Assembly: GCA_024137785.1 (NCBI GenBank)
Contig: JAHRHZ010000059.1
Coordinates: forward strand, 26,378,559 to 26,442,558
DNA from: Ginglymostoma cirratum
Taxonomy: Eukaryota
Length of the DNA: 64,000 bases
Direction: 5' to 3'
In this document: positions 20,845-56,674 of the stretch, one piece after another
Position numbering within the stretch: position 1 is the first letter of the stretch
How the letters are laid out: each line of letters starts with the position of its first letter
Notes under the pieces: generated by a model
Told to the model about the DNA's origin: nothing
The model's database searches: none
The model's input: the letters and a program-made list of their open reading frames with translations, nothing else
Translations under genes and position numbers: made by a program

Positions 20845-21180
20845 ACATGACAGTGCCAGGTCGTATCAGAATGGGCATGGTGAGCGTCATGTGACAGTGC
20901 CAGGTAGTGTGAGAATGGGTATGGTGAGGGTCATGTGACAGTGCCAGTCAGTGTAACAATGGGCACCATGAGGGTCATGTGACAATGCCAGTCAGTGTAA
21001 CAACGGGCACGGTGAGGGTCATGTGATCGTGCCAGTCAGTGTAACAATGGGCACGATGAGGGTCATGTGACAGTGACAGTCAGTGTAACAATGGGCACGG
21101 TGAGGGTCATGTGACTGTGCCCGTCNNNNNNNNNNGAGGGTCATGTGACTGTGCCCGTCAGTGTAACAATGGGCACGGTG
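20845..21180. repeat. 44-bp minisatellite, at least 7-8 units, with a 10-N gap at 21126-21135
   Basis: GAGGGTCATG recurs at 20926, 20970, 21014, 21058 and 21102. Unit is about GAGGGTCATGTGACAGTGCCAGTCAGTGTAACAATGGGCACGGT. Confidence 0.95.
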
Positions 21181-40355: not shown

Positions 40356-42659
40356 TTTCATTCATCCACCTCACAGAATCCATAAAACAGTGGAGAGGCT
40401 TCCCACCACTGAAAGCAAAAAGGCATTTTCATTCTCCTGATTAATTGTCACTTTCTGTGGGAGCCATTAATGTGGTGAAAAATCATGCTTTCTTTCCCAA
40501 AACATTTATTTGCTACTTATCTTGATTGTAGGTGAAAGCTGCTGGTAAGAACAGTAAACAGTGTTTACTTAACGTCTACACTCTTCAATTATATGGTCTG
40601 TATTTTGAAGAAAAGGAACAACTGTTTGACTTCAATGGATTTTCCTTATTTTCCTGTGAAAACAACCTCCGCATTGACAAAGCAAAGTAATAGGTTAAAA
40701 GGCAAGTTCCAAAGTTACAGAAATACAAGAACAAAGCACAAGAATTTCATCAATGTTAAGTGAATCTGGATACAGATTAACGTTTTGAATTTAAGCTATT
40801 AAAATGTTGCTGTTAATTACTATTTATGCATAAATGGATAAATCCCTTCCCGCTTTTTGAGAAAATAATTATAGCAGCAATGTACATTGCCAGATGCAAC
40901 TATAAAAGCCCAAAGGACAAATTAATATAGCATCATATTACAATGATATTGGGAAAAAAAGTGCATTTATATGGCCCTTTTCACTACCCCAGGATGTCCC
41001 AAAGCATTTTACAACCACTGAGGCAATTTCTAAATTGTAATGACTGTTGTACTGAATTAAATAAATTACTGGCCACTGCAATGAATGGAAGTGTATTGCC
41101 TGTAACTTGGATTGCAAAGATAACATTTTATTGACTGAATGCTACATGAAGAGTGACCTGTATTTACTGTCAGTAGCTAGGAATTCACATAAATGATAAC
41201 AGCAACCATTTCGCTGAAAACGTGGAGTGCACTTGCAGTTCTGTGCTCTACTTGTTGGGAAGGAGGTCTTGATCTCGGAGGGAGTACATATACCAGACTG
41301 ATACCTGGACTTCAATTAAACTACAAGGAGAGATTCCATGAACGAGGGTTGTATTCCTCCCGGAGTAAAGGATTTGATCAAAGTTTTCAAGACAGACAGG
41401 AGGTATTTCCGCTGGCTGGGGGAGGTCGAGAGCGAAGGGACAAATGGTGAAGTCGAGCCATTGCTAGGGGGTGCGTTCCTGAAGAACGTGCAATCGATGA
41501 TTTTCCCAAACAGTGGACATTGCATGTTGTCCACCGGCAGTTACACGCGCAGTGCAGAGCACACTTTTACTCCGGGAAGTAAGTTCCATTCTTTATTTCT
41601 CCTTTAAATCCGCAGATGAGCGAGCTGTACGTGCACAGTCAGTGAAAGGTATACAGGCAATGCTGTGTAAATAAGTGAATCTGTGACAGGTGAGCACACA
41701 AATGGCTGAAAATTTACCGCCATCTAAGACAGACTTTCCAGGAGCGTAACTAGGAACCGGTTCCACACACCGAGACTGAAGTCGAATGTTTGCAATGCAG
41801 GGCTCATACTTGTGGCTGATGGTTAACTTTAAACCTGACATTGATAGATTTTTATGAACCAAAGCTTTTAAGGGATAATTCACAGAACACGAATCCAGAT
41901 CAAGTGATTCAACATTTCATCCTGTTTCTGGGTTCCTAAAGACTTCAGAGTAAACATTGACTTTTGTTTTAAAGATTATTAACTACCACCTTATCTTGTG
42001 TTTAGCATTGTTTAAAGTACAATGTTTGTAATCAATATTATGCATTCACAGAAGACAAAAACACGAAGGGTTATTCTTTTTTTAACCTGTTCAGAGATGA
42101 TATTGCACACCTCCGGGGTAGTTGGGATTTGATACCAGATCTTCAGGCTCAGAGTTAGGGACATTACCAGATATGGATGGGTGTTGCAGCCCCTCTGTCA
42201 GTGGGTTTGAAGGTTGGGGCACGGTTTGGTGTAGGGCTGTAGAATGCAGTGCGTAGTCTGTCCACTGCTGTCCCACCCTCTCTCAACCTCTCTCCAATTT
42301 GATGGTGCGTGGTGGAGGTCCCAAGCTCCACCCCACCCCCTACGCCCCACCCTTGGATGAGAGGCAGCCAGTTAATGGTCACTTAAGTGCCTCATCCGAC
42401 GCCTCACCTCCCATCGCTATTTTACCGTCGCGGTGGGGGTGAAGGGTCGTCTGGAAGAAATGTGGGGCACACTATTGTGAGGGAGAAGGGAGCTGGAGGC
42501 GGGGGAGAAGGGGGCTCCACGCGACACCTGACCCCAAGTTCACTCCCCTTCCTCAGATTGAACTCTCCTTCACTGGCATCTTCAACCTGCTTCCCTGTAT
42601 TTATGAACTTCAGGAGACCATTGGCCTTATTAGCCACTTGGCCAACGTGCCTTGGTAGT

Positions 42660-42785
42660 TCTGGAGAAGGGTCCAGACGCTTTCATCAGCTTTCCTGCTC
42701 CTCTGATGCTGCCTGACCTGCTGTGTTCATCCAGCTCCACACTGTATTATCTCAGACTCCAGCATCTGCAGTTCCGACTGTCGCC
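42660..42785 (+). mobile_element. Single-arm copy of the fold-back family, copy G
   Basis: CTGGAGAAGGGTCCAGAC... through ...CTCCAGCATCTGCAGTTCC; same arm sequence as the other copies. Confidence 0.65.
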
Positions 42786-42931
42786 TGGGTAGTCTGTTAG
42801 TTGAGTGTGAGCTCATGTACTGCTAGCCCGCACAGAATTGTAAGCTTTACTTCACAAAGATTTAACCGCTAATGGAGGTCAAAACCGAAAGAACTGCGGG
42901 TGCTGTAAATCAGGACGCTTCCTCACTAATA

Positions 42932-43545
42932 GAGATAACAAGCATGGGGCTGGATGAACACAACAGGTCAAGCAGCATCATAGGAGCAGGAAAACTTTTT
43001 CCGAGATAACAAGCATGGGGCTGGATGAACACAGCAGCTCCTATGATGCTGCTTGACCTGCTGTGTTCATCCAGCCCCATGCTNNNNNNNNNNNNNNNNN
43101 NNNNNNNNNNNNNNNNNNNNNNNNNNNNNNNNNNNNNNNNNNNNNNNNNNNNNNNNNNNNNNNNNNNNNNNNNNNNNNNNNNNNNNNNNNNNNNNNNNNN
43201 NNNNNNNNNNNNNNNNNNNNNNNNNNNNNNNNNNNNNNNNNNNNNNNNNNNNNNNNNNNNNNNNNNNNNNNNNNNNNNNNNNNNNNNNNNNNNNNNNNNN
43301 NNNNNNNNNNNNNNNNNNNNNNNNNNNNNNNNNNNNNNNNNNNNNNNNNNNNNNNNNNNNNNNNNNNNNNNNNNNNNNNNNNNNNNNNNNNNNNNNNNNN
43401 NNNNNNNNNNNNNNNNNNNNNNNNNNNNNNNNNNNNNNNNNNNNNNNNNNNNNNNNNNNNNNNNNNNNNNNNNNNNNNNNNNNTGTGTTCATCCAGCCCC
43501 ATGCTTGTTATCTCGGATTCTCCAGCATCTGCAGTACCTTCTATC
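42932..43545 (+). mobile_element. Fold-back Penelope-like element, copy B (400-N gap at 43084-43483)
   Basis: Arms nearly identical to copy A. Direct repeat TCCTCACTAATAGAGAT at 42920-42936 and 43546-43562, partly overlapping the element ends. Confidence 0.75.
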
Positions 43546-43614
43546 TCCTCACTAATAGAGATCGTTTGGTTAAAAAAAAACTTGCATACGATATTAGTTT
43601 GCCTCAGCCGGAGG

Positions 43615-44163
43615 ATTTTGCCCAGTGCTGCGCCCCGCTCTTCGGGATACATGTGAAGGGATTGGAGGGGAAGTCAGAAAAGATTTACAAAAATGGATGA
43701 GGAATTTCAGAGAGGAGAAAAGACTGGAGAAGTTGGGAGAAGAGAAGGCTAAGGGGAGCAAATTACTGCAGATGCTAGAATCTGTACTGAAAACAACAAA
43801 TGCTGGAGATCATAACAGCATCCGTGGAGAGAGAGCAAGCTAACCTTTCGAGACTCGAAACGTTAGCTTGCTGTCTCTCCACGGATGCTGCCTGACTCGC
43901 TGTGATCTCCAGCATTTGTCGTTTTCAGGCTAAGGGGAGATCGCATGGAGGTATTCAAAATCATGAGATGTCTGGATAGAGTAGGGAGGGAGAGACTCTT
44001 CCTCCTGACATAAAGATTGAGTTTGAGAGTGCGCAGATTTAAAGAAATCAGTGAAAGAAGCGAAGAGGATATATGGAAAATGTTTTTCGCACAATTTGTG
44101 GTTAGGATCTGCCGGAGAGTGTGATGGAAACAGACTCGAATAAGGCTTTGAAAAGGACATTGG
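43615..44163 (+). mobile_element. CR1 LINE 3' fragment interrupted by fold-back copy F
   Basis: The ORF2 C-terminal sequence is continuous once 43759-43939 is removed. Confidence 0.7.
43759..43926 (-). mobile_element. Fold-back element, copy F, inserted into a CR1 fragment
   Basis: Long internal inverted repeat centred near 43851; 13-bp TSD AGGCTAAGGGGAG at 43746-43758 and 43927-43939. Confidence 0.75.
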
Positions 44164-45845: not shown

Positions 45846-46616
45846 CCTCAGTAAATTTGAGATTACACAAAAAACTCTTGGTACCTACGTGGCATTATTT
45901 CACATTCGTCTGTTACTCCCCACTGTGCTTGCTGACCAACATTGGCTCCCAGTCCAGCAATGGCTCCATTTGAAGATTCTAACCTTTCCATAGCCTCATC
46001 CTCCCCAACTCTGTAACCTCCTCCAGCTCCACAACTCTCCAACATTGCTGCATCCCTCCAATCCTGAACTCTTGCGTGCCTCTGAATTGTACCTTATGGC
46101 CACATGTTCTGATTGTCTAGGCCCTAAGCTTTCGGAATTCCCTCCCAAAGCCTTTCTCCCTCCTTTACGATATTGCTTTAAATACCCCGACACACCTGCC
46201 CCCAATATCTGCTTAAGAAGCTCATTGTCAAATTTTGTCTGATGGTCACTACTCTCAAGTGCCTTGGGATCTTTCACCGTGTTAAAGGTGACATACAAAT
46301 ACAGGTTGTTGTTGCTGTTCAAGTGACCCACTAGCCATATTTATGGCACTCAGTCCTCAATTTAGAAACAAGGCTGGGTATATTTAAATCGCTGACGAGA
46401 GTTAGCACCAGGAGCTTCTAAACCAAATCCATGCTTAGCTGAACTAAACTCTGCAAGCTGATGCACACTTCTTTCAAATTCTTTCTTCCTGGTACAATTA
46501 CCACGCCCGCACATCAACAAAATTAGTTTCGAATGTTTCAGTCAAGCTGGGAGCTGTTGTTTGTCCTATTCACAGATATACTCTTAACAAGAACACAACC
46601 AGCAATAATATAGGGT

Positions 46617-46750
46617 AAGAGATAATAAAGTGTAGAGCTGGATGAACACAGCAGGCCAAGCAGCACCAGAGGAGCAGGAAAGGTGACGTTTCGGGCCTAG
46701 ACCCTTCTTCAGAATTCTCCAGCATCTGCAGTTCCTACTATCTCTGAAAC
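46617..46750 (+). mobile_element. Fold-back family copy C (inverted arm joined directly to the 3' tail)
   Basis: TSD AATATAGGGT at 46607-46616 and 46751-46760; contains an intact hammerhead core on the minus strand. Confidence 0.75.
46685..46712 (-). ncRNA. Minimal hammerhead ribozyme core (Penelope type)
   Basis: CUGAAGA-A-GGGUCUAGGCCC-GAAA-CGUC: conserved boxes, helix II, palindromic ACGU helix III and GUC cleavage triplet. Helix I is poor in this copy. Confidence 0.6.
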
Positions 46751-52135: not shown

Positions 52136-52264
52136 CATTGCTTTCTGTCCTTGAGGTAGGGGCACTTTGCAGCAACCTCTATCCCTCCCTGAACCACCCT
52201 TTCAGTGACCACCCTCTGACATCTGCAACCCCCACCCACCCCGCACCCACAGTCACCCCCTCAG

Positions 52265-53122
52265 TGATCTGGACTCTCCCTGATCCGGACTCTCACTGAT
52301 CCGGTCTCTCGCTGATCCAGACTCTCTCTGATCTGGACTCTCACTGACCCAGATTCTCCCTGACCCGATCTCTCACTGACCTGGATTCTCTCTGACCCTG
52401 ACTCTCACTGACCCGGACTCTCGCTGATCCAGTCTCTCACTGACCCGGACTCTCACTGACCCAGACTCTTACTGATCCGGTCTCTCACTGATCCGGACTC
52501 CCTCTGAACCAGACTCTCCCTGACCCAGACGCTCCCTGACCCAGACTCTCCCTGTCCTGGTCTCTCGCTGACCCAGACACTCACTGATCTGGTCTCTCGC
52601 TGATCTGGACTCTCACTGATCCGGACTCTCCCTGATCTGGTCTCTTGCTGATCCGTTCTCTCGCTGATCTGTTCTCTTGCTGATCCGGTCTCTCACTGAT
52701 CCGGACTCTCCCTGATCTGGACTCTGACCCAGACTCTCCCTGATCCAGGCTTTCGCTGATCTAGACTCTCACTGATCTGGACTCCCCCTGACCCAGGCTC
52801 ACCCTGACCCGGACTCTCGCTGATCCAGACTCTCACTGATCCGGACTATCCCTGATCCGGTCTCTTGCTGATCTGTTCTCTCGCTGATCCGTTCTCTCGC
52901 TGATCCGGTCTCTCCCTGATCCGGACTCTCCCTGATCTGGACTCTGACCCGGACTCTCACTGATCTGGACTCGCCCTGATCTGGACTCTGACCCGGACTC
53001 CTGCTGATCCGGACTCTCCCTGACCCAGACTCTCACTGATCCAGACTCTCACTGACCTGGACTCTCCCTGACCCAGACTCTCACTGACCCGGACTCTCAC
53101 TGACCAGGGCTCTCCCTGATCC
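52265..53122. repeat. 16-bp minisatellite (CTGAYCYRGACTCTCN), roughly 54 units
   Basis: TGATC recurs at 52265, 52281, 52297, 52313 and 52329, and the pattern continues to about 53120. Confidence 0.95.
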
Positions 53123-53604
53123 ATCTCCTCCCTGTTCCTCTAATCCCTGGCTCCATTGCTTGTGGATTCGCTCTCTCCTAAGCACTGAGTATGAACTGTG
53201 GAGTGTGATGTAGGAAGCAGGAGGGACAGTGTCAACACTGAGGAAGTGTCACAGTCTCCTCAAGTCGGTTTGTGATTAACCTCACACCTTTTTTGATCAG
53301 AAATCTCATGGAAATAGATCCTTAATCCTGACAAAAAGAGAACCTATGCCATGATGGCTTGATCATGTGGGGACAGAGGGTCATCATGTGACTCCTTGCT
53401 GTCACACATGGGTTGTGAACTCTGCTGGTAAGACCAATACTGATTGTTCAACCCCACTTGTTCTTGTCAGGGTTAGGAATGAGCTTTAACCTTTTCAGGT
53501 GTCTGTGAGTTGAGTAACTGATGGGTATGTGCCACAACTTTAGAACTTCCTTGCTTTTTTGTGCCAAGTGGGATACGGTGATACCGCACACCTCACACAG
53601 CATT

Positions 53605-53849
53605 CAGAGACAGCAAGAACTGCCAATGCTGGAGTCAGAGCCAACACAGTGTGGAGCTGGAGGAACACAACAGGTCAGGCAGCATCAGAGGTGCAGAACA
53701 GTTGATGTTTCGGGTCGGGACCCTTTATCAGAACTTGTAAAACCATACTGTGAAGCCAGTTCTGATGAAGGGTCCTGACCCGAAATGGTGACTTTCCTGT
53801 TCCTCTGATGTTCTGACCTGCTGTGTTCCTCCAGCTCCACACTGTGTTG
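53605..53849 (-). mobile_element. Complete fold-back element, copy D, with two head-to-head hammerhead-like cores
   Basis: Inverted arms of about 90 bp, a spacer of about 25 nt and a 37-nt tail. TSD CCTCACACWGCATT at 53591-53604 and 53850-53863. Cores at 53704-53731 (-) and 53762-53789 (+). Confidence 0.8.
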
Positions 53850-56674
53850 CCTCACACTGCATTGTCTGGACTTTTGTGCTGAACTGAGCAAGTGTGAATG
53901 CCAGAATTGCTGCTCAGTTTATCCTTTAATAACAGTAGGCTCTGCTGTCCTAACCATTTCTTCATCTCAAAAATCTGAACAAGTCTGTGAAGGTGGGAGC
54001 TGAGATTCACTCTTGCCTATTCGTCAGTTCATTTCTGTCAGGGGCATAAGAGGCAAAATTCATTCACTTCTCATTCCATATAAATGACCATGACTCTGAA
54101 GCTTGTCTTCGCTATAATGTCACTTTGTTAACTTATTTGGAACAGCTCCTTGTCCCTTAACATGGAATCTTTGATTTAAACCACAAAAAATATATAGCCG
54201 TGCAATCAAGTTAAGAATGTTATCTGGTTAATGGATTGGAGCTACATTTTCCTTTTAAGAATTTTTTTTTTAAATTTATGTAAGTTTCTTCATTTTGGTC
54301 CCTTCTTAATTCTAATTAATCTACTTTACGCTTTTACTGTCACCAGAATACCTTCTTTTACAATATTCAGCATTTCTGGTGACATTTATCCCAGTGGAGA
54401 AGATACAGTCTCATTCCATTAATATGGCATTGATTAAGCATCTTTGTCTCCCTATCCCTACTCCCATTCATTGGTCCATGAATCAGTCTGAGGACCATAG
54501 TGGCTTAGACAGGGTGGAAGTGACAGATAGAGTTAATTACTTGCTTAGCTCATTCCGTATTAGAACTGACAATTATGTTTGTCTTCCATTTTTGCACCTT
54601 TTCATGCCTTAATGTGCAGAGCTGGGATTTCCCTTGGGTGGGAATGCAATGTGTTTGTACTTAACATCAGTGTACAGCAAGCCTGACATTCAATTTCACT
54701 GCCCTCTGCAGAGCAACAACAGAAGCCTGTAACAGGCAGTGGACGTAATATCACACGCTTTGTGTTAGCGACCCAATGTAATTTCCGACCTGCAGTGTCA
54801 TACTGGGGTCCACACTTATCAGTCATTACTCCAACTGCTCCCAGCTGGCTAGGCTTTATGAATGATCCTTTATATCGAGGGGTTTTAGGATTGTCAACTA
54901 TTGAGAGAATTCGCAAGAAAAGTCAACAAGGTTCCAGCCTGGCCCTTTCCTCATCCAACACCTGTCCGTGCTTGTGACCTTTTAATTCATTCATGGAATG
55001 CAGGCATCAGTGGCAAGGCCAGCATTTGTATCCCATCCCTAAATACCCTTAAGAAGGTGTCTGAGCTACATTCTTGAGCTATTGCAGTCCCGTTGCAAAT
55101 CACGTATGACTTGCTTGGGGCATTTCAGAATTCGTTTTAGAGTCCACCACATTTCTCTAGGTCTGGAGTCAAATGTAGGCCAGACTGGATAAGTTCAGCA
55201 GATTTCCCTCCCTGAAGGACATTCATGAGGCAGCTGGGGTTTTAAGTCAGTCTGGTACGTTCATATTTCGCAGCAGGAGGCATTTGGCAAGAGAAGGTTG
55301 CACAGTGGTAATGGTCACTGAGCCACTAATACAGAATTATGGACTCAAATCTCACCATGGCCAATGCTGTGTGGTACATGAGTATCTGCATGGAACCAAA
55401 GCAATGTGCAAAGGACAAATCAATCATTGAAAGTGCAAGACATTAATTTGAGGCCCCTCATCAGAATTGCTGGAAGTTCTTAGTTGTTATGGGTTGTTTG
55501 GGTGAGTCATACTTAAAACATTCAGTTTACCAAAGTTTTAATCCACTAAAAGTAGATTTGTTTCACATTTTGAACTGTGACTTTTTCCTATCTCAAATTC
55601 TAGTCTAATGAATGCAGGATTCCAATTTATACAAATTGGAGTTCATTTTGACTGTTCTCGAGAGTGAACTGGGTGATGGGAGCTTTATCAGAGGCAGGCA
55701 GTGATGGTGCAGTGTCATGCCACTCGGCGAGTAATTAGGAGGCCTCAGGCTAATACTTGAGGGGCATGAGTTTAATTCTCATTGCATCAAGCTGGAATTG
55801 AAAGCTAGTGTCAGTGACGATGACAACTGTTAAAATATCAACCTGTCCAGTTCACTAATGAAGGAAATCTGCCATTCTTACCCAGTGCGGTCTACATGTG
55901 ACTCCAAACCCAAAGCAATGTGGTTGATTCTGAACTGCCCCAGCAAGCCATGCAGTTTAGGGGCAATTGGGGATGTGTAACAAATGGTGGCCTTATGCCC
56001 ATGTCCCATTGGAAGAATAAATTTAAAGAAGCAAAGTGGATGTCAGTTTTTTTTTTATATTGCCTTTTTAATACCACAATGATACGCAAAATTACCCTGG
56101 GTCCTAAAGAGTCAAAAAGTTACAGCTTCAAATGTGAGGAAAATGTTCTGTACTGCCTTTGAATAAAACTGGATATCTTTGTAATGTGAAGGCTGATAGG
56201 GGATGCCAAGTGTCATACTAATGCTGTCATCCTTGATCCCAAGGGACCACCTAAGGGAAAGAAAGGAAAAAGGTTCTAATCCACCGTGTGACACATTCAT
56301 AAAGGTGGTCTCATTTCAAATCAAACTGGATACAGCCAGAATCTCTATATGGTACTTTTGGGAGTGTGATTATTACTCTCAACAGTGCAGTATAACTCGA
56401 GTAATACTTTAAAAGCACCCTTGAGTTTCTTTCTAACTTTGAATGATCTACCAGACTATAACTTCCCTACAATAAATACGTGATTCTATCTTTATTTTTC
56501 GTGCAGGGATTGAAAATCGATTGGGAGAAATGTTCTTTTGGAGTTTATGTCTGTTGCGGGTGGTGATCTGATTGTACAGTAATGTCAGTCAGATTCAAAG
56601 CATTAACCCTACAGCATTCAACAACTAAGACCAAAAAAAAATAGTTTTGCATCCAGAATATTGCTACTTTATTG

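Follow-up and report, generated by a model that had tools for sequence, protein, structure and literature searches.

In endonuclease-bearing (EN+) Penelope-like retroelements (PLEs), the head-to-head layout of element ends is a standard by-product of insertion, and hairpins of the architecture analyzed here are already known from the literature, as far as the accessible portions of PMC3846280 and PMC8557442 go. The insertion units of these elements carry an optional tail of 30-40 bp (PMC3846280; PMC8557442). The origin of the inverted ends and the role of the hammerhead are called unresolved in excerpts of PMC8557442 and PMC11167929. Transcription starts inside the terminal repeats (pLTRs) are already known (PMC6765202; PMC8557442). 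The pLTR of a rotifer element possesses a TATA box and an initiator-like sequence (PMC3846280), and Penelope of Drosophila virilis possesses a TATA-less promoter with a start 46 bp before an intron (PMC2377424), which ends at helix I (PMC4209133). In Schistosoma, dual hammerhead motifs are found on opposite strands, 100-700 bp apart (PMC4209133). Further, the anole enzyme cuts and extends both strands in vitro, and unprocessed RNA is the main template of the anole element PAc (PMC11167929). Non-LTR retrozymes consist of direct tandem units, each with a hammerhead (bioRxiv 10.64898/2026.07.22.740005).

We analyzed a head-to-head pair of hammerhead motifs in a window of 64,000 nucleotides of Ginglymostoma cirratum DNA. 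The element spans 53605-53849 (245 nt) and forms one hairpin with 93-bp arms (Table 1). It thus extends beyond the hairpin of the preliminary description, because the left arm bears an unpaired 37-nt tail. The predicted fold of the hairpin had an energy of -171.7 kcal/mol (z = -16.7), and none of 200 shuffled sequences folded equally well. Identity of the window arms to read-through copies was 85-90% for an older subfamily and 79-86% for younger ones. We identified the centre as templated filler, since 18 of 19 nt matched the 5' UTR of the parent (next tandem unit). Native sequence upstream of the core was rejected as its origin, as only 2 genomic matches had the core attached. By analogy with the anole system in the accessible part of PMC11167929, the tail of the long arm may mark the outer start site of reverse transcription. 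Rfam at gathering scores gave zero matches within the 64-kb window.

Table 1. Features of the hairpin locus, in window coordinates.
Feature	Position	Strand	Remarks
Target-site duplication, left copy, 14 bp	53591..53604		one mismatch to the right copy
Unpaired 37-nt tail, 3' end of the long arm	53605..53641	-	one tail and one short arm in 45/48 hairpins
Long arm, pLTR end, older PLE subfamily	53605..53735	-	85-89% identity to read-through copies
Minimal type I hammerhead, decayed	53700..53735	-	G8A; CG to CA at 15.2/16.2; predicted cleavage after 53704; base 53735 is the A of an initiator-like motif
22-nt centre	53736..53757	+	18/19 nt match element sequence just behind the tail; common to L026
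Minimal type I hammerhead, decayed	53758..53793	+	C15.2U, U16.1G, C17U; predicted cleavage after 53789; base 53758 is the A of an initiator-like motif
Short arm, pLTR end without tail	53758..53849	+	87-90% identity to older-subfamily read-through copies
Target-site duplication, right copy, 14 bp	53850..53863		pairs with the left copy

Several other features were observed in the same window. A MEIS-family homeobox gene lies on the minus strand (26928-28180, start codon 28180), and its exon matched Pfam Meis_PKNOX_N (E 8e-23). A 16-bp minisatellite (52260-53122; 54.7 copies, 77% matches) stops ~470 nt before the hairpin, and a 44-bp tandem array (20848-21125, 6.3 copies) runs into a stretch of N. 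An arm of the same PLE at 46615-46748 still has its core intact (46689-46712, minus strand), and its own tail comes next in opposite orientation. At 12690-12910 there is a decayed head-to-head hairpin that belongs to a second PLE family and has a longer helix II. Further fold-back and fragmented PLE ends are located at 43816-43890, 42657-43547 and 7674-8210, two of them partly masked by N.

Both hammerhead cores of the preliminary description were recovered at the places stated: AGTT-CTGATAA-A-GGGTCCCGACCC-GAAA-CATC-AACT on the minus strand (C3 at 53731, base 17 at 53704) and AGTT-CTGATGA-A-GGGTCCTGACCC-GAAA-TGGT-GACT on the plus strand (C3 at 53762, base 17 at 53789). Helix II is possible in each core, as is a helix I of 4 bp, in agreement with the proposed type I topology. 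The preliminary description had also noted substitutions, some of them at a CpG. The CpG changes were confirmed, yet each core has also lost an invariant catalytic base (G8A in the minus core, U16.1G in the plus core). Either change alone violates the core consensus used by Perreault et al., as given in an excerpt of PMC3088659. Further, the palindrome is lost from the minus core, and the plus core carries two additional substitutions (Table 1). Both window ribozymes are predicted from their sequences to be inactive. The variant found in the plus core occurs at just 2 genomic sites.

In the family as a whole the catalytic core was kept, as the ribozyme reading of the preliminary description had called for. 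The family motif is that of a minimal type I hammerhead, with C3-A9, G12-A15.1, U16.1 and H17 present. A strict 31-letter core pattern had 2,850 exact matches in the genome, and the reversed control had none. Among 191 family cores, 188 possessed an extra A before helix II (between 9 and 10.1) and 145 the CG palindrome at 15.2/16.2; CpG decay products were present in 43. The full core was intact in 11 of 35 unselected arms. The first four positions of helix I paired at frequencies of 1.00, 0.97, 0.69 and 0.71 in 86 cores with C-rich upstream sequence, some of which were selected for that upstream sequence.

The suggestion that the long hairpin competes with ribozyme folding was borne out by the fold predictions. 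Forcing the hammerhead helices on the full hairpin cost 42.0 kcal/mol (plus) or 29.6 kcal/mol (minus), and in nascent chains the penalty was 24-40 kcal/mol, with predicted hammerhead helix probabilities of 0.0. Note that the antisense arm is transcribed first in transcripts of both strands. A built-in off-switch, which had been proposed on these grounds, found no support at the window locus, because each core has lost one invariant base; moreover, the layout is that of the standard insertion by-product. By analogy with Penelope in a lizard, which is heavily edited (PMC5625713, partial text), it is plausible that copies serve as a dsRNA or editing substrate where they are transcribed.

When the window hairpin was used as a query, 4,688 candidates were found in the 4.36-Gb genome, and all 40 that were scored matched most of the query. 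The strict head-to-head pattern was present at 1,296 loci genome-wide and its reversed control at none. We also sampled 13 contigs in 60 stretches of 10 kb at even spacing (341,022 readable bases), which contained 60 arms; their neighbours were head-to-head in 14 cases and never tail-to-tail or direct. The density of hairpins was ~41 per Mb, which extrapolates to a genome total of roughly 1-2 x 10^5.

Among the best matches, a same-strand arm was located downstream of a GIY-YIG domain in 29 of 30 loci, the remaining locus being masked, and the distance was mostly ~350-400 nt (30 loci). One insertion (L091) contains a 714-aa frame with Pfam GIY-YIG and RVT_1, the latter below the curated cut-off, and a CX4CxxC linker at residue 563. 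This frame lies between a tail arm in inverted orientation and a short arm in direct orientation, within a 17-bp duplication, and these ends are the same as those of the window copy. Further, older-subfamily read-through copies contain endonuclease coding sequence upstream of the arm, and the order in partial tandems is arm, tail, short 5' UTR and ORF start. A CX2-5CxxC linker between the reverse transcriptase (RT) and endonuclease is described for the Neptune clade and also for Nematis (PMC8557442, partial text). The linker of the parent is of this Neptune/Nematis type. The family may already bear a name in Repbase or Dfam. A second PLE family (L265-L325) possesses TATAAA and, directly before the hammerhead, TCAGTT, and forms 1,273 strict hairpins; its frame at L272 is 55-67% identical to that of L091. 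In addition, short direct tandems in which the 5' UTR is joined back to the hammerhead start were observed at three loci (L213, L215 and L225). This recurrent template jump could seed retrozyme-like dimers.

The insertion signature was examined in 48 hairpins, namely 27 of 30 top-hit loci (three duplicates were dropped), 7 of 15 filtered centre-pattern loci and 14 random pairs. One tail arm and one short arm were present in 45 of the 48. A duplication of at least 9 nt flanked 33 of the 48, compared with 1-3% in mismatched controls, and the length of the target duplications varied from 9 to 19 nt.

We determined where the arms stop by counting the exact native sequence upstream of C3. In family 1, 68 of 70 ends were situated at most 6 nt upstream of C3 (first 35 of 1,296 hairpins), as were 94 of 98 ends in family 2 (49 of the first 50 of 1,273 hairpins, one neighbouring duplicate being omitted). 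For both families, 162 of 168 ends were within 6 nt, compared with 39% expected under a uniform null with a 30-nt limit, and 4 of 168 were at 8 nt or more, compared with 56% under the uniform null; only hairpins with intact cores and a centre of at most 30 nt had been admitted to these samples. Among 87 unselected arms, 22 ended at -6 to 0 and none at -7 to -12, with a modal end at -3 (12 arms), not at -4. Another 31 read through, and 34 ended inside or past the ribozyme. Resection or ordinary truncation therefore also occurs. Only 5 of the 87 had their end close to the cleavage site (+28), at +26 to +30, and cleaved RNA was accordingly not supported as the main template. We are close to certain of what the parent element is, of the arms facing head-to-head with a tail on one of them, of the duplication and where the centre came from, and of the mutated cores and sharp 5' boundary.

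The boundary coincides with promoter-like motifs. In family 1, 63 of 71 read-through arms had a TATA-like TATTTA located 31 nt ahead of the A at -4, which is part of CCATTT or CCAGTT. In family 2, most of the matches listed had TATAAA 29 nt ahead of the A in TCAGTT (4,003 matches, none in the control). The motifs of both families agree with the usual spacing of TATA boxes and with the initiator consensus. Further, an extra T was present at the boundary in 25 of 103 short arms and in none of 65 read-through arms, as expected from slippage at the end of a template. From the placement of these motifs we lean towards reading the boundary as the site where a TATA-initiator promoter starts transcription, on the first base of helix I, and the short arms as strong-stop cDNAs. 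At the RNA level, no match was listed for window positions 53130-56000, and in two presumed-RNA runs and two others the signal over a parent copy mirrored copy number. Because the arrangement in D. virilis differs, this geometry of TATA box, initiator and ribozyme is not universal.

The sharp boundary might instead reflect a stall of RT at a C-rich tract or RNA structure, or a splice acceptor, a minority possibility in our judgment. Family 1 possesses a C-run just upstream of the boundary, but family 2 keeps the boundary without a long C-run. AG occupies -4/-3 in the older subfamily and family 2, and, as noted above, helix I is where the intron of D. virilis terminates; yet the boundary is still present in the young subfamily without AG at these positions, 60 of 98 family-2 ends retain at least 3 native bases, which is beyond a splice point at -2, and there was no common upstream exon sequence at the joints examined. 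A cap-derived G at -5, whose absence would fit a stall or splice site, was not seen (6 G, 17 C, 8 A and 2 T; n = 33), whereas the TATA-initiator spacing is kept in both families.

The head-to-head layout itself could have arisen within a single element, one strand priming itself and folding back, in which case the first arm served as template for the second. Head-to-head palindromes are interpreted in this way in the accessible text of PMC3846280 (Arkhipova et al., 2013), with self-priming on an antisense template. Arms within a hairpin differed at 8.8% of markers, compared with a background of 6.7% and with 37% for random pairing (57 pairs), and 36 of the 57 pairs were identical at all 6 marker sites. 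These shared subfamily markers fit fold-back and two cDNAs alike. In three hairpins (L051, L108 and L233), however, several markers differ between the arms while background mismatches number 0-1, and at least these hairpins look as though they carry arms of two variants. Since fold-back cannot yield mixed arms, we favor two cDNAs. The variable centres, often with element-derived filler, and the action of the anole enzyme on both strands in vitro also argue against fold-back, which we regard as rather unlikely.

Two-strand nicking with two internal priming sites, modeled on the anole system, is the probable alternative to self-priming fold-back. The RT-endonuclease would nick both target strands ~14 nt apart, and priming would occur at two internal start sites, ~+94 and ~+130 from C3, both by analogy with the available part of PMC11167929. 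Each cDNA would run to the 5' end of the RNA, which is likely capped. The short arms would then be "strong-stop" cDNAs from the 5' repeat of uncleaved mRNA, comprising its first 98 or 134 nt. The two cDNA ends would be fused by end-joining with templated filler, the window filler being a snippet of 5' UTR. Whether the motif order further means that the ribozyme would be a capped 36-nt leader and that each hairpin would join two strong-stop cDNAs primed on opposite target strands is, to us, an evenly balanced question. If it were so, ribozyme cleavage would remove the cap and act as a dimer- or protein-triggered brake on the mRNA of the element, and the head-to-head inverted pLTRs of Penelope would be explained without an antisense template. 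As for the locus itself, it is very likely a single old PLE insertion of paired short cDNAs, with two inverted terminal repeats bearing ribozymes that are predicted to be dead.

A MITE-like or retrozyme-like non-autonomous family, in which whole hairpins are copied from masters, is very improbable. The window copy shares a ~43-nt centre and G8A with one other hairpin, L026/L103 (G000:C25:41832280-41832534), and short centres recur among hairpins. However, long centres were otherwise unique among the loci read, the recurring ones being 2-14 nt joins of two ends; the duplications vary in length; and the ORF-bearing insertion L091 has the identical end structure. The arms of L026 belong to another subfamily, and its flanks differ. 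Shared internal sequence with a fixed short duplication, as expected of a MITE-like family, was not found, with L026 as the sole exception. The likeness of L026 counts against separate origins, because independent birth leaves the shared centre and G8A unexplained; this one case most likely stems from templated repair or from conversion between hairpins. Further, the window copy resembles retrozymes in being non-coding, hammerhead-bearing and derived from PLE pLTRs (bioRxiv 10.64898/2026.07.22.740005, partial text), but identity with them was rejected, the window copy being an inverted pair and direct neighbours being absent from random DNA.

We can scarcely credit a functional device, be it an off-switch for the ribozyme or a dsRNA or small-RNA source under selection. 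In its favor, the hairpin is predicted to block the ribozyme fold fully in transcripts of either strand, A-to-I editing is heavy in lizard Penelope and also in frog palindromic repeats (PMC5625713, partial text), and the insertion may be common to two related organisms (a weak hint, the flank contigs entering the element by <31 nt). Against it, both cores lack an invariant base, the plus-core variant is confined to its two genomic sites, divergence of the arms from read-through copies is 10-15%, the layout is what insertion yields by default at the density given above, and the copy lies outside the exons found, ~25 kb upstream of the start codon of the MEIS-family gene. The window locus is ordinary dead transposon debris, and its interest rests on the hairpin population. 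Wherever they are transcribed, ~10^5 hairpins, from perfect to decayed, would constitute a large pool of substrates for dsRNA formation and editing.

A start-site or strong-stop reading of PLE ends was not found in the freely accessible literature that was searched. The EN+ PLE insertion units share with the hairpins described here the inverted pLTRs, a tail at a single end, a duplication of ~9-19 nt and an RT and GIY-YIG parent in partial tandems (PMC3846280; PMC8557442). They differ in that the window insert is reduced to two ends and that the ends of the family pile up 5' of the hammerhead, a fixed end point that is not reported in the accessible text of these two papers. The motif resembles the PLE minimal hammerhead in the lack of helix III, CG at 15.2/16.2, G10.1-C11.1, a short helix I and an extra base between 9 and 10.1 (PMC4209133, partial text). 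In contrast to the dual motifs of Schistosoma, the window cores are 30 nt apart and both mutated. As in Poseidon PAc of Anolis, two internal RT start sites would define the tail (Frangieh et al., 2024; PMC11167929). Unlike PAc, whose ORF starts inside the ribozyme and whose transcription start is unmapped in the available part of that paper, the parent here has an ORF that starts ~45 nt behind the tail and a Neptune/Nematis-type linker.

What is new here is the fixed end point of the arms at a TATA-initiator-like site in two families, which provides a testable clue to PLE replication. In LTR retroelements, minus-strand strong-stop synthesis is primed near the 5' end of the RNA and yields a short cDNA that ends at the cap. 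If the transcription-start reading is true, the PLE arms would be similar in that a short cDNA reaches the cap. In contrast to LTR retroelements, the short cDNA of this non-LTR element would be target-primed, with no tRNA primer, and would be inserted directly as a dead pair.
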